A stretch of DNA of 64,000 bases from Planctomycetota bacterium (GCA_026692665.1 JAPLOF010000028.1:4708-68707), one strand, 5' to 3'; shown: positions 32,764-38,620, counted from the stretch's first letter. Numbers and translations: made by a program. Notes: generated from the sequence alone by a model not told the origin.

Positions 32764-35700
32764 TCACTCCGCCTTCGGGGCTTCGGCGTGCTCGCGCCCC
32801 GCGGCGAGTCCCGGTAACGCGCTCGCGTCCCAGCCTCCGCCGAGCGCGCGGACGAGCAGGACCGCGTTCACGAAGCGTCGGCCCTGGAGTTGCGCGTAGG
32901 CACGTTCGGCCGCGAGACGGGCACGGGCGCCGTCGACGACGTCGAGGAAGCTGACGAAGCCCGCGTTGAAGCGCGTGAGAGAGAGGTCGGCGACGCGTTT
33001 CGCGGCGACCGTCGCGCGTTCTTGGGCCACTGCCTGCTCGGACAGGAGCTTCGTCGCGGTCAGGGCGTCCTGCACCTCGCGGAACGCGACGAGGACCCGC
33101 TGGCGGTAGAGCTCGACGCCCTCGTCGTACGCCGCGCGCGCGCGCGCCTCGTCGGCTTCGAGACGTCCGCCCTGGAAGATCGGGATCGAGATCGAGGGTG
33201 CGAGGCTCCAGATGCGGCTGTCGATCTCGAACAGGTCGTCGATCTCGCCGCTCTGGAGGCCGGCGCTGCCCGTCAGGCGGATGCTCGGGAAGTAGGCCGC
33301 CTCGGCGACGCCGATCCGGGCGTTGCGCGCGGCGAGCTCGCGCTCGGCCTGCGCGACGTCGGGGCGTCGCTCGAGCAGCTCGCTGGGCAGGCCGGCCGGG
33401 ATCTCGGGCGGTTCCGCGGCGAGCCACGCGCCGACGTCGATGTCGAACGAGCTCGGGGGCTCGCCCGCCAGCACGGCCAGCGCATTGCGCAGGGCGGACC
33501 GTTGCCGCGAGACTTCGGACAGGTCGACCTCCGCGCTCGCGAGCTCCGTCTCGACGCGCGCGAGGTCGAGCTCGTTCGACGTTCCGGCCTCGACGCGCGA
33601 GCGGACGATGTCGAACGCGTTTCGCCGCACCTCGACCGACCGGTTCAGTACGGAGACTTCCGTCTCGAGCGCACGCAGGGAGAACCAGCTCGCGGCGACT
33701 TCGGCCTGGATCGAGAGGCGCAGCGATTCGTACGCGGCGGCCAGCGCGTCGGTCTCTCGCTCGCCAGCCTCGACGGCGCGACGCACGCGGCCCCACAGGT
33801 CGATCTCCCACGAGAGATCGATCGGCACGCGAATGTCCGAGATCGTCGCGGACGAGAAGGGGAGTCCCGCGTTGGGCGAGTACTCGGTGCGCGTCCACGT
33901 CGGGTTCGCTGTCACGCTCGGGTACAGCGCGGAGCGGACGGCCTTGGTCGAGGCGAGTGCTTGCTCGATGCGCGACAACGCGGCCTTCAGGTCGTGGTTC
34001 TCGGCGGCGACGCGCTCCTGGAGCGCGTCGAGACCCGGGTCGCCGAAGAGCTTCCACCATGCGCCGCGCGGGATCGCTTCCGGCGCCGGCTCGGAGCCGG
34101 TGGGCGCATCGCGCCAGGTGTTCGCGGAGGGGGTCTCCGGTCGGACGTAATCGGGGCCGACGGCCGCGCAGCCCGCGAGCAGGAGGATCGGCGCGAGGAG
34201 GAGCGCTGCCGCGTGTCCGCCGGCGGCCTTCAGGCCGTGGCCACCGGCTCCGTGATCGGGAGTCGGCTCGGCATCGTGCTTCGGTGCCTGCGCGCGCTTC
34301 CAGCCGATGCGCAGGAGCAGCGCGTAGAAGAGCGGCGTCAGGAACAGGCCGAAGTTCGTCACGCCGATCATCCCGGCGAACACGGCGACGCCCATGGCGC
34401 GGCGCATCTCGGAGCCCGCGCCCGTGCTGACGACGAGCGGGAAGACGCCCGCGATGAACGCGATGCTCGTCATGAGGATCGGGCGCAGGCGCAGCTTGGA
34501 CGCCTCCACCGCGGCGGAAGCCGGATCCAGGCCCTCGTCCTGCTTCACCTTGGCGAACTCGACGATCAGGATCGCGTTCTTCGCCGCCAGGCCGATCAGG
34601 ACGATCAGGCCGATCTGCGTGAACACGTTGTTGTCGCCGCCGGTGAAGTACACGCCGGCCATCGCCGAGAGCAGCGACATGGGGACGATCAGGAGGATCG
34701 CGAGCGGCATCCGGAAGCTCTCGTACTGCGCGGCCAGCACGAGGAACACGAGCAGGATGCACAGCGGGAACACGTAGATCGCCGAGTTGCCCGCCAGGAT
34801 CTTCTGGTAGGTGAGGTCGGTCCACTCGTACTTCATGCCCGGCGGGAGGTTCTCCTCGGCGAGCTTCGCCATCGCGGACTCGGCCTGGCCCGAGCTGTAT
34901 CCAGGGCCGGGCGCGCCCAGGATCTCGGCCGCGGGATAGCCGTTGTACCGGCTGGCGCGGTCGGGTCCGTACGACTCGCGGACCTCGACGAGTGTCCCGA
35001 GCGGGACCATCTGTCCGCGCTCGTTGCGCACCTTGAGGCGCGTGATGTCCGACGCCTCGTCGCGGAACTGCGCGTCGGCCTGCGCGACCACCTTGTAGGT
35101 CCGACCGAACCGGTTGAAGTCGTTGACGTAGACCGATCCGAGGTTCACCTGCATCGCGTCGAAGACGCTCTGCAGCGGGACGCCCTGCGTCTTGGCCTTC
35201 TCGCGGTCGACGTCGGCCTCGAGCTGCGGGACGTTGACCTGGAAGCTCGAGAGCCCGCCGGAGAGCTCGGGGTTCTGCGCCATCCGCCCGATGAGGCCCC
35301 AGGTCGCCGCGAAGAGCGCGTCGTGGCCGGCGTCCGCGCGATCCTCGACGAACAGCTTGAAGCCTCCCACGGTGCCCAGCCCGTTCACGGGCGGCGGGGG
35401 GAAGATCGCGACGTACGCGTCCTGGATCGCGGCGAACTTCTGGTTCAGGGCGCCCGCGATCGCGAGTCCGCCGAGCTCGGGCGTCTTCCGCTTCTCGAAC
35501 GGATCGAGCGTGACGAAGACGATCCCGGCATTCGCGCTGACCGTGAAACCGTTGATCGACAGGCCGGGAAACGCCACGCACGACTCGACGCCGGGATGGG
35601 CGAGCGCGATCTCCGACATCCGGCGGATCACGGCGTCCGAGCGGTCGAGCGAGGATGCGTCGGGAAGCTGCGCGAACGCCACGAGGTACTGCTTGTCCTG

Positions 35701-37422
35701 CGTCGGGACGAATCCCGTGGGGACGCGCTGGAAGACCCACCACGTCGCTCCGATCAGGCCGGCGTACACGACGAGCGCGACGATCGCGATGCGGATGACG
35801 CCGGCCACCGCGCGGCCGTACAGGGCCGAGCCGCGCTCGAAGATCCAGTTGAAGGGTCGGAAGATCCAGCCGAACAGGAAGTCGATCGCCTTCGTCACGA
35901 CGTCCTTCTTCGCGCCGTGCGGCTGGAGCAGGAGCGCGCTGAGCGCCGGCGAGAGCGTCAGCGAGTTGAACGCGCTGATGACCGTCGAGATCGCGATGGT
36001 GATCGCGAACTGCTTGTAGAACTGGCCGGTCAGCCCGCTGATGAACGCGGTCGGGATGAACACGGCCGACAGCACCAGCGCGGTCGCGATGATCGGCCCC
36101 GTGACCTCGGTCATGGCCTTCTTCGTGGCCTCGACCGGAGACAGGCCGTTCCGGATGTTCCGTTCGACGTTCTCGACGACGACGATCGCATCGTCGACGA
36201 CGATGCCGATCGCGAGCACGAGCCCGAAGAGGGACAGGGCGTTGATCCCGAAACCCAGCGCGTTCATGACCGCGAAGGTCCCGACCAGGGACACGGGCAC
36301 GGCCGCCAGGGGGATGAGGCTCGCCCGCCAGGTCTGGAGGAACAGGACGACGACGAGCACGACCAGCAGGATGGCCTCGATCAGCGTCACGACGACCGCG
36401 TCGATCGAGTGCTGCACGAACACCGTCGGGTCGTAGACGATGCGGTACTCGAGGCCGGCGGGGAAGTTCGACTTCAGGGCCTCCATCGCCGCGTGGACGT
36501 TGGCGGAGATCTCGATCGCGTTGCTGCCCGGCAGCTGGAAGATCGGGATGCCCACCGCCTGCTGGTTGTCGAGCAGCGAGCGCAGGGCGTAGTCGCCTGC
36601 TCCGAGCTCGATGCGCGCGACGTGCTTCAGCAGCACCTTCTCGCCGTTCGGGCCCTGCTTGACGACGATGTCGCCGAACTCCTCCTCGTCGACGAGGCGG
36701 CCTTTCGCGCTGAGCTGCAGCTCGAAGTCGACGGCGCCCGCCGTGGGTTGCTGTCCGATCGCGCCGGCGGCCACCTGCACGTTCTGCTCGCGGATCGCCG
36801 CCACGATGTCGCCGGCGGTCAGGCCGCGCGCCGCGACCTTCTCGGGGTCCAGCCACACGCGCATCGCGTAGTCGCCGCCGCCGAAGATCTCGACGGCGCC
36901 GACTCCGGGCAGGCGCGCCAGCACGTCCTTCACCTGCAGCGACGCGTAGTTGCGCAGGTAGATCTCGTCGTATCGCCCGTCGGGCGACAGGAGGTGCACG
37001 ACGAGGGTGAGGTCGGGCGACTGCTTGACCGTCGTCACGCCCAGGCGCCGCACGTCCTCGGGCAGCTTGGGCAGCGCCTGACTGACGCGGTTCTGCACCT
37101 GGACCTGGGCCTGGTCCACGTCGGTGCCGAGCTTGAAGGTGACCGTCAGCGTCATCACGCCGTCCGAGGTCGCCTGCGAGAACATGTAGATCGAGTTCTC
37201 GACCCCGTTGATCGCCTGCTCGAGCGGTGCGGCCACCGTCTCGGAGATCGTCTTCGGATTCGCGCCCGGGTAGGCGGCGCGGACGACCACGGTGGGCGGC
37301 GTGACCTCCGGATACTCGCTGATGGGCAGGCGGCCCATCGCGAGGAGGCCGAGCAGGAGGATCAGCAGGCTGAGGACGCCGGCGAAGATCGGGCGTCGGA
37401 TGAAGAAGTGCGAGAAGTTCAT
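32764..37422 (-). CDS. RND (HAE1) multidrug efflux permease fused in frame to a NodT-type outer-membrane factor lipoprotein
   Basis: One uninterrupted 1552-aa ORF. Residues 1 to ~1045 are AcrB-like (MNFSHFFIRRPIFAGVL.., 12 TM). Residues ~1064-1085 form a lipoprotein signal (LKAAGGHAAALLLAPILLLAGC, Cys codon at 34168-34170). The remainder is a NodT family OMF (CAAVGPDYVRPE...). There is no stop and no in-frame ATG/GTG/TTG at the junction. Confidence 0.8.
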   Translation of the reverse strand: MNFSHFFIRRPIFAGVLSLLILLLGLLAMGRLPISEYPEVTPPTVVVRAAYPGANPKTISETVAAPLEQAINGVENSIYMFSQATSDGVMTLTVTFKLGTDVDQAQVQVQNRVSQALPKLPEDVRRLGVTTVKQSPDLTLVVHLLSPDGRYDEIYLRNYASLQVKDVLARLPGVGAVEIFGGGDYAMRVWLDPEKVAARGLTAGDIVAAIREQNVQVAAGAIGQQPTAGAVDFELQLSAKGRLVDEEEFGDIVVKQGPNGEKVLLKHVARIELGAGDYALRSLLDNQQAVGIPIFQLPGSNAIEISANVHAAMEALKSNFPAGLEYRIVYDPTVFVQHSIDAVVVTLIEAILLVVLVVVLFLQTWRASLIPLAAVPVSLVGTFAVMNALGFGINALSLFGLVLAIGIVVDDAIVVVENVERNIRNGLSPVEATKKAMTEVTGPIIATALVLSAVFIPTAFISGLTGQFYKQFAITIAISTVISAFNSLTLSPALSALLLQPHGAKKDVVTKAIDFLFGWIFRPFNWIFERGSALYGRAVAGVIRIAIVALVVYAGLIGATWWVFQRVPTGFVPTQDKQYLVAFAQLPDASSLDRSDAVIRRMSEIALAHPGVESCVAFPGLSINGFTVSANAGIVFVTLDPFEKRKTPELGGLAIAGALNQKFAAIQDAYVAIFPPPPVNGLGTVGGFKLFVEDRADAGHDALFAATWGLIGRMAQNPELSGGLSSFQVNVPQLEADVDREKAKTQGVPLQSVFDAMQVNLGSVYVNDFNRFGRTYKVVAQADAQFRDEASDITRLKVRNERGQMVPLGTLVEVRESYGPDRASRYNGYPAAEILGAPGPGYSSGQAESAMAKLAEENLPPGMKYEWTDLTYQKILAGNSAIYVFPLCILLVFLVLAAQYESFRMPLAILLIVPMSLLSAMAGVYFTGGDNNVFTQIGLIVLIGLAAKNAILIVEFAKVKQDEGLDPASAAVEASKLRLRPILMTSIAFIAGVFPLVVSTGAGSEMRRAMGVAVFAGMIGVTNFGLFLTPLFYALLLRIGWKRAQAPKHDAEPTPDHGAGGHGLKAAGGHAAALLLAPILLLAGCAAVGPDYVRPETPSANTWRDAPTGSEPAPEAIPRGAWWKLFGDPGLDALQERVAAENHDLKAALSRIEQALASTKAVRSALYPSVTANPTWTRTEYSPNAGLPFSSATISDIRVPIDLSWEIDLWGRVRRAVEAGERETDALAAAYESLRLSIQAEVAASWFSLRALETEVSVLNRSVEVRRNAFDIVRSRVEAGTSNELDLARVETELASAEVDLSEVSRQRSALRNALAVLAGEPPSSFDIDVGAWLAAEPPEIPAGLPSELLERRPDVAQAERELAARNARIGVAEAAYFPSIRLTGSAGLQSGEIDDLFEIDSRIWSLAPSISIPIFQGGRLEADEARARAAYDEGVELYRQRVLVAFREVQDALTATKLLSEQAVAQERATVAAKRVADLSLTRFNAGFVSFLDVVDGARARLAAERAYAQLQGRRFVNAVLLVRALGGGWDASALPGLAAGREHAEAPKAE

Positions 37423-37444: not shown

Positions 37445-38620
37445 TCAGCGGCCTTCGGGCTTCGGCTGCGCGTGTTCCGGCGTGACCGGAGTTCCGGGGC
37501 GGATGCGCTGGAGGCCGTTCACGACGATCTGTTCGCCGGCGCTCAACCCCGTGCGCACGATGCGCAACCCGTCCACGACGGGGCCCAGCGTGATCGCGCG
37601 GTACTGCGCGACGTTGTCGGCCCCCACGACGTACACGAACTTCTGCGACTGGTCCGTGCCGATCGCGCGTTGGTTCACGAGCACGGTCGGCTGCTTGGCC
37701 GTCGTGGGCATGCGCACGCGCGCGAACAGGCCCGGGAGGAGGATCCCGTCGTGGTTCGGCACCTGGACGCGCATCAGGATCGACCCGGTGCCCGTGTCGA
37801 GCCGGTTGCCCAGCGACTCGACGACGCCCGCGCGCGGGAATCCGTCCTCGTCGGCCAGCCCGACCTCGACCTGCACGCGGCCCTCCGCGTCGTGGGGGAG
37901 CTCGTTGGCCCGCATGAGCCTCTGGAGGTGCAGCAGCGAGTTCTCGTCGACGTCGACGTACACGAAGATCGGGTCGACCGACACGATCGTGGTGAGCAGC
38001 GTGTTCGCGCTGGGGATGCCGCTGACGAAGTTCCCGGGCGTCACGAGGGCGCGGCTCACGCGCCCGTCGACGGGCGCGACGATGCGCGTGTATTCGACGT
38101 CGAGCCGCGCCAGGTCGCGCGCCGCCTCGGCCGACAGGAGTGCCGCGCGCGCTTCCGCCTGCCGGGCCGTGCGGCCCTCCGCCTCCTCGATCGAGATCGC
38201 GCGGGCCTCGAGCAACTGGGCCGAGCGCGCCGCCTCGCGGTCGGCGGTGTCGAGCTTCACCCGCGCCTGGACGATCTGGGCCTCCGCCGCGGCGAGGTTG
38301 GCGCGGTAGTAGCGCGCGTCGATCGTGAAGAGCGGGTCACCGCGCTTCACGAGCTGGCCGCTCCGGAAATGCACCTCGTCGACGTGGCCGCTGACGCGCG
38401 GCCGGATCTCGACGTCGTCGACCGCCCCGAGGCGCCCGGTGAACTCGGTCGTCTCGGCGATCTCTCGTCCCTCCGCCGGGGCGATGGTGACGGCGGGCGG
38501 CGGGGCCTGCGGCGCCGAGGCCGGAGCCGCTTCCGAGCCGGACTTCCCGCGCTGGATCAGGAAGGCAGCCCCCGCGGCGACGGCGAGGACGATCAGGACG
38601 GTCAGAGTGCGGGACTTCAT
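37445..38620 (-). CDS. RND efflux periplasmic adaptor (membrane fusion protein)
   Basis: Signal anchor MKSRTLTVLIVLAVAAGAAFL, with the alpha-hairpin, lipoyl and beta-barrel pattern (IRPRVSGHVDEVHFRSGQLVKRGDPLFTID.., YTRIVAPVDGRVS). It lies 22 nt upstream of the RND gene. Confidence 0.9.
   Translation of the reverse strand: MKSRTLTVLIVLAVAAGAAFLIQRGKSGSEAAPASAPQAPPPAVTIAPAEGREIAETTEFTGRLGAVDDVEIRPRVSGHVDEVHFRSGQLVKRGDPLFTIDARYYRANLAAAEAQIVQARVKLDTADREAARSAQLLEARAISIEEAEGRTARQAEARAALLSAEAARDLARLDVEYTRIVAPVDGRVSRALVTPGNFVSGIPSANTLLTTIVSVDPIFVYVDVDENSLLHLQRLMRANELPHDAEGRVQVEVGLADEDGFPRAGVVESLGNRLDTGTGSILMRVQVPNHDGILLPGLFARVRMPTTAKQPTVLVNQRAIGTDQSQKFVYVVGADNVAQYRAITLGPVVDGLRIVRTGLSAGEQIVVNGLQRIRPGTPVTPEHAQPKPEGR

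Follow-up and report, generated by a model that had tools for sequence, protein, structure and literature searches.

An RND permease and a NodT-type outer-membrane channel share one reading frame and are predicted to be made as a polyprotein precursor in uncultured bacteria

Intrinsic drug efflux in Gram-negative bacteria depends chiefly on tripartite pumps of the resistance-nodulation-division (RND) type, whose three subunits, i.e. periplasmic adaptor, RND permease and outer-membrane factor (OMF), are treated in reviews as separate gene products. Here we analysed a 64,000-nucleotide (nt) stretch of DNA from Planctomycetota bacterium (GCA_026692665.1, JAPLOF010000028.1:4708-68707; referred to as the window, with positions counted from its first letter), in which an RND permease and a NodT-family OMF are encoded in one uninterrupted open reading frame (ORF). 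The locus shares with MexAB-OprM, MexEF-OprN and OqxAB the components and their order (adaptor, permease, OMF), the adaptor gene adjoining. As in pumps of the MexAB-OprM/OqxAB type, the permease matches HAE1 and OqxB-like profiles over their full length, and a lipobox cysteine stands at the N-terminus of the mature OMF. In contrast to these systems, permease and OMF occupy a single frame, the OMF signal is internal (residues 1064-1085 of 1552), and the permease would carry a 13th helix after processing.

The nearest mechanistic precedent known to us is FbcH, the cytochrome b/c1 precursor of Bradyrhizobium japonicum, which has reportedly been shown by experiment to be cut by signal peptidase I at the internal signal of cytochrome c1. 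Both designs consist of a polytopic inner-membrane protein ending in the cytoplasm, followed by the signal of a periplasm-facing partner, and in both the two parts are subunits of one complex. An internal signal and a peptidase site behind the cytoplasmic end of a polytopic protein, as in a polyprotein of the FbcH type, are likewise predicted at the present locus. The proteins are, however, unrelated; the site here is a lipobox, recognized by signal peptidase II (Lsp), or A-x-A in most homologues, and the product would also have to reach the outer membrane. Full-text literature searches returned no description of an RND-OMF fusion, and none appears in the portions of text available to us of a review on tripartite pumps (Chem Rev 2021, PMC8277102).

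The fused gene is divided into the following parts (residues numbered along the fused ORF):

32764..37422, minus strand: whole fused ORF, comprising RND permease, linker, internal lipoprotein signal and NodT OMF
34294..37422, minus strand: residues 1-1043, the HAE1-type RND permease, with ...LTPLFYALLLRIGWKR as its conserved C-terminal tail (from profile matches and alignment)
34234..34293, minus strand: polar cytoplasmic linker, residues 1044-1063, rich in Ala, Pro, Gly and His and poorly conserved (from low model confidence and variable length)
34168..34233, minus strand: predicted internal lipoprotein signal peptide, residues 1064-1085 (from a predicted helix and a conserved site in homologues)
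32767..34170, minus strand: mature NodT/OprM-type OMF, residues 1085-1552, with the lipobox Cys first (from TIGR01845, OprM alignment and AlphaFold2 model)

The frame runs through 1552 codons plus stop and has no internal stop. The initial annotation, which had described a permease and a NodT lipoprotein with a lipobox in one ORF of 1552 residues, was correct to the base. Pfam ACR_tran (PF00873) spans residues 3-1036 (profile positions 1-1020 of 1021), and the permease half scored 1437 bits against NCBIfam RND_permease_1 (NF000282; cut-off 1250, profile positions 1-1027 of 1029) and 1158.7 bits against TIGR00915 (cut-off 940). Matching at full length and exceeding the curated cut-off, this half belongs to the HAE1 RND permeases. 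Its end-to-end profile coverage and the known structures of AcrB and MexB suggest a topology of twelve transmembrane helices in which the N- and C-termini both face the cytoplasm. The channel half matched TIGR01845 (NodT OMF) with 406.7 bits (cut-off 210) over residues 1078-1530, corresponding to profile positions 3-460 of 460. It also matched the OprM structure 1wp1 over residues 3-455 (E = 3e-62) and, more generally, the structures of OprM, OprN, OprJ, CusC and MtrE (E = 1e-50 to 1e-62). With a full-length match above cut-off, the OMF fold and the lipobox Cys as the predicted mature residue 1, the channel half is a NodT-family OMF. Its signal peptide, which in this family is found at the translated N-terminus, is placed here after a whole RND permease, at residues 1064-1085. 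Likewise permease and OMF, which in tripartite pumps are separate polypeptides, here form a single 1552-codon frame that was confirmed in other samples and species.

At the junction, the permease tail reads ...RIGWKR1043 (codons of W1041-K1042-R1043 at 34302-34294) and is followed by the linker A1044-G1063 (20 residues, 34293-34234), the length of which differs between homologues, always by whole codons. The signal-like segment, L1064-K-AAGGHAAALLLAPILL-L-A-G-C1085, starts at a CTG codon (L1064, 34233-34231) and comprises an n-region (K1065), an h-region (A1066-L1082) and the lipobox L1082-A-G-C1085, the Cys1085 codon TGC being located at 34170-34168. The lipobox is followed by the motif AVGPDYVRPE, the type of start found in mature OprM-type channels. 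No in-frame ATG, GTG or TTG occurs from the LTPLFY motif of transmembrane helix 12 (TM12) to VGPDY, which bears out the earlier statement that neither a stop nor any of these start codons separates the permease from the lipobox. The CTG had been read, in its CTGA context, as a decayed NTGA start/stop overlap; the codon exists, but the overlap is rejected, as the position is not conserved in five congeneric orthologues (CTC, CTC, GTG, ATC and TTC). A scanned stretch including the linker contained no promoter-like site and one terminator-like site, on the plus strand, which is below chance expectation. In an AlphaFold2 model of residues 1000-1552 (mean predicted local-distance difference test score, pLDDT, 83), TM12 leads into a disordered region (1041-1066, pLDDT < 50) and then into a helix of 20 residues (1064-1083); beyond it lie an extended N-terminal strand and an OMF protomer modelled in full, with four beta-strands and long paired helices, mostly at pLDDT > 90. 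For the signal segment, the prediction is a 13th membrane helix that passes from the cytoplasm to the periplasm.

Support for the junction was evaluated at the level of assembler contigs from three separate samples, with rare length variants possible. An independently assembled Logan contig from the probable source run, a freshwater metagenome, covers positions 34019-34579 with 0 differences. Two further contigs, one from a drinking-water metagenome (34172-34354) and the other from a biofilm metatranscriptome (34160-34414), are gap-free and differ from the window by 9 substitutions each, with approximately 95-96% identity at the junction. No insertion or deletion within 34168-34330 was present in the contigs of the three samples. 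The fused orthologue was found as one frame in five of seven other congeneric species (approximately 1545-1720 codons, 68-84% junction identity), one of the five ending early at a contig end; in a sixth species the gene lies across two contig ends, and one species is without it. Congeneric junctions measure 183-204 nt, all divisible by 3, with alignment gaps of 3, 6 or 12 nt, a pattern indicating that the linker drifted under selection for an unbroken frame. The lipobox Cys is retained in all six species of the genus in the junction alignment. The fusion is genuine, and selection maintains it.

The arrangement extends well beyond this genus. In a junction-restricted search, 120 of the 120 matches listed had both domains; they were mostly 1530-1570 residues long and 45-79% identical, and those that were named came from metagenome-assembled genomes (MAGs) of Planctomycetes, Verrucomicrobia and Binatia. 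Searching with the OMF half yielded at least 499 clusters (90% identity), each of at least 853 residues and with E <= 1e-10, a number that is a lower bound as the length window of this search reaches long proteins only; PF00873 and PF02321 were both present in nearly all of the 120 clusters listed. The clusters come mostly from Verrucomicrobiota, and some from Planctomycetota and Acidobacteriota. Among the species-representative genome matches listed (GTDB), the fused frame was found in a Planctomycetota MAG, several Verrucomicrobiota and one member of the Vicinamibacterales (Acidobacteriota); the Proteobacterial loci were ordinary split operons. Samples of 401 genomes per phylum, scored for 6 candidates per genome so that the fractions are lower bounds, gave stop-free matches spanning the junction in 3 Planctomycetota (all of the window's own family) and approximately 7 Verrucomicrobiota. 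The architecture is thus sporadic among species and common in metagenomes, and all carriers identified are uncultured, represented by MAG or metagenome records only.

To follow the fused and split states, a tree was built from the permease half (85 rows), with two rows that appeared split at contig ends set to unknown. All fusions except the acidobacterial one fell into one well-supported clade, where they are mixed with split genes, and with the contig-end rows left as unknown the state changed at least six times on the RND tree. A single origin of the fusion was considered as well; a tree grouping the 29 fusions of the clade was rejected by the approximately unbiased (AU) test (p-AU 8e-7) under a quick search and a simple model. 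The independent fusion in Acidobacteriota keeps the linker, the hydrophobic stretch and a lipobox (...L-A-T-A-C). Because interconversion is easy on the tree, we suggest that the fused and split forms give the same end products, and the two forms appear to be functionally interchangeable.

Further variants of the arrangement were encountered. Six Verrucomicrobiota genomes gave matches that span the junction with one or two internal stops (TGA or TAA). At three loci (L004, L005 and L006), a stop interrupts what is otherwise a common frame of permease and OMF; in L004 and L005 it is a single TGA a few codons before the OMF Met. All these stop-containing forms stand close to the fused form. Two Verrucomicrobia MAGs have the fused junction in a broken frame, interrupted upstream (L003) or 178 codons past the start of the match (L016), and these may be assembly frameshifts or decaying copies. 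One single cluster (913 residues, on a 5.9-kb Logan contig) is apparently a 12-helix transporter of the major facilitator superfamily (MFS) joined to an OMF with 49% identity to that of the window. Its junction is alike, with a polar linker, a hydrophobic stretch and S-T-A-R-A-G before LFTVGPNY, and the internal-signal arrangement may thus not be limited to RND pumps.

Whether the chain is cut can be judged from the position and conservation of the junction motifs. Residue 3 of the mature OprM chain (1wp1) aligns with V1088, and the lipidated Cys1 of OprM thus falls within one residue of Cys1085. Established structures place this lipidated residue of OprM in the inner leaflet of the outer membrane. 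At the present locus, the mature OMF begins immediately behind a helix that must lie in the inner membrane; lacking a spacer, a chain left uncut could not bring the channel to the outer membrane. In 40 of 111 full-length fused homologues, VGPDY is preceded, at a distance of two to three residues, by L-[ATS]-[GS]-C. In the remaining 71 the Cys is absent and [SP]-A-x-A-G-x-L-T precedes VGPDY (Ala at -5 in 60/71, Gly at -4 in 56/71); A-x-A is the classical site of signal peptidase I. One site or the other is present in every homologue (111/111), and the best 12-residue Kyte-Doolittle mean is at least 1.86 in all of them. Without cleavage, the retention of two different peptidase motifs at a single internal position would be difficult to account for. 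In split operons of the same RND clade, the OMF has its own Met and either a signal ending in ...S-A-x-A-Q before [IVL]GP[DN][YF] or a lipobox.

We propose that two subunits of a tripartite RND pump probably arise from this gene as one polyprotein precursor that is cut after export. One chain would be translated; its 12-helix RND permease would enter the inner membrane so that the permease C-terminus stays on the cytoplasmic side. Past the disordered linker, the signal peptide of the OMF would insert as a 13th helix from the cytoplasm to the periplasm, and this internal signal would drive the Sec-dependent export of the OMF part of approximately 470 residues. Lgt would lipidate Cys1085 and Lsp would cut between G1084 and C1085, or signal peptidase I would make the equivalent cut in the A-x-A homologues, which are the majority. 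Cleavage would free an OprM-like channel, lipidated at its N-terminus and destined for the outer membrane; the permease would retain the linker tail and one extra transmembrane helix, and both products would form an ordinary tripartite pump with the upstream adaptor. The genome itself encodes Lsp (PF01252), Lgt (PF01790) and two genes of the Omp85/BamA type, as determined by profile search. The concern of the initial annotation that a covalently linked pump and channel would be topologically unusual disappears if the chain is cut; signal peptides insert from the cytoplasm, where the pump is predicted to have its C-terminus. The gain would likely be that pump and channel are made in equimolar amounts and at one membrane site; both are trimers and occur in a 1:1 ratio (3:3 in the assembled machine).

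Several points weigh against a precursor that is cut after export. We know of no demonstrated Lsp cut of an internal signal behind a 12-helix membrane protein, and it is by inference that we assign export to the internal signal, cleavage to the peptidase sites and a membrane fate to the 13th helix. The lipobox and A-x-A counts among the 111 homologues come from related sequences and are not independent, and the fused group that was compared in the AU test (p-AU 8e-7) was defined after the tree had been seen. Moreover, LolA (PF03548, PF17131) was not found in the 90%-complete genome, and the best LolCE-like match there scored below cut-off. This gap in LolA and LolCE bears equally on the split OMF lipoprotein of the same genome and is uninformative for the fusion. 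The genome encodes several lipoprotein OMFs besides Lgt and Lsp, yet gave no LolA match.

Other explanations differ in what becomes of the chain or in how it arises. If it stayed uncut, the 13th helix would anchor the N-terminus of the OMF in the inner membrane, and pump and channel would be one covalent polypeptide. This would agree with a frame that is continuous and conserved, cleavage being a prediction from sequence; however, such a chain would have to span the periplasm without a spacer, given that Cys1085 lies within one residue of the N-terminal Cys of OprM. An anchor needs no peptidase motifs, yet two kinds are conserved exactly there, and fused and split forms interconvert freely, so that we regard an uncut chain as quite improbable. 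We also consider it unlikely that the covalent link is functional, with the OMF tethered via the 13th helix, either permanently or until a regulated, delayed cut, and with the channel trimer assembling in cis on the co-translated pump trimer; if true, the tethered form would be an obligate self-pairing trans-envelope machine and, were the cut made by Lsp, also the first polytopic membrane protein to serve as an internal-site substrate of the lipoprotein pathway. Alternatively, the OMF might be made separately by internal initiation at a non-canonical start in the linker, e.g. the CTG at 34233-34231, the long frame being incidental. This CTG sits 21 codons before the Cys and has a GGAG upstream, but the linker of the window is without in-frame ATG, GTG or TTG, no start codon, CTG included, is conserved among the congeneric orthologues, and a Met occurs in the linker of just 8 of the 111 homologues. 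Internal initiation would, moreover, not select for continuity of the frame, yet all linker indels are multiples of three and hundreds of lineages keep one frame, which makes this explanation very doubtful.

The join itself could be an artefact or a sign of decay, arising either through an indel introduced during sequencing or assembly or through a frameshift that recently connected two neighbouring genes. A split operon with a 1-nt gap exists in the same genome, so that a single indel could create such a join, and some copies in long-read MAGs (L003, L016) have broken frames. Against this stand the gap-free contigs across the junction from three samples, the occurrence of the orthologous fusion in five species of the genus as well as in at least 499 clusters, and the full-length, above-cut-off match of both halves to their family profiles, and we consider an artefact or decaying gene extremely improbable. 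The initial annotation had left three readings unranked, a genuine fusion with an internal signal-like helix and perhaps Lsp cleavage, a recent 1-nt frameshift and an assembly indel. The genuine fusion is the one supported by the contigs, the congeneric orthologues and the clusters. On the sequence evidence, the frameshift is refuted by the frame kept in those same species, with indels of multiples of three, and in the clusters, and the assembly indel by the contigs of the separate samples; instead of a 1-nt difference that would restore separate genes, the congeneric junctions show gaps of multiples of three.

The predicted precursor is encoded in an operon of two genes, the adaptor being first and the fused gene second:

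37445..38620, minus strand: periplasmic adaptor (membrane-fusion protein), 391 residues (Pfam HlyD_D23, HlyD_3 and Biotin_lipoyl_2)

This HlyD-family adaptor gene ends 22 nt upstream of the fused gene, and the operon in the window contains no separate channel gene. The flanking genes, FtsK and a CoaBC C-terminal domain, sit on the opposite strand, and no TetR-type regulator lies beside the operon within the window. On another contig (5.9 Mb, ENA ERZ25039534), a cluster was observed that consists of a TetR regulator, a small unknown gene, an adaptor, a fused RND-OMF gene and an MFS transporter.

The same genome carries a split paralogue on contig 17 (109450-114052), with the RND gene at 109450-112614 and the OMF gene at 112682-114052. 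Its halves are 45% and 35% identical to the respective halves of the fused gene. The paralogue belongs to the same two families and has a similar permease tail, rich in Ala, Gly and Pro; it differs from the fused gene in having its own stop and an ATG in another frame, the RND stop TGA being followed by one nucleotide and then by the ATG of the OMF. This OMF begins with M-D-V-R-P-F-V-A-V-L-L-L-S-A-G-C, a short lipoprotein signal with the lipobox LSAGC. The paralogue models the pre-fusion state, as the two chains would be joined via the signal peptide of the channel if the stop were lost and the frame shifted by one base.

The fusion also affects how channel genes are counted. Annotation pipelines name the fused genes 'RND permease' only, and channel genes are consequently under-counted in Verrucomicrobiota and related groups; the automatic names of JGI ('HAE1 family protein/NodT family ... 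lipoprotein') register both halves. If the proposed processing holds true, a signal peptide located internally, after a membrane protein of 12 helices, could deliver an outer-membrane protein, such internal sites could be processed by Lsp or signal peptidase I, and an RND permease could carry a 13th helix. The natural precursor would be a built-in experiment on stoichiometry and on the place where pump and channel first meet, and the fused architecture predicts a biogenesis route for these pumps of which our literature searches returned no description.

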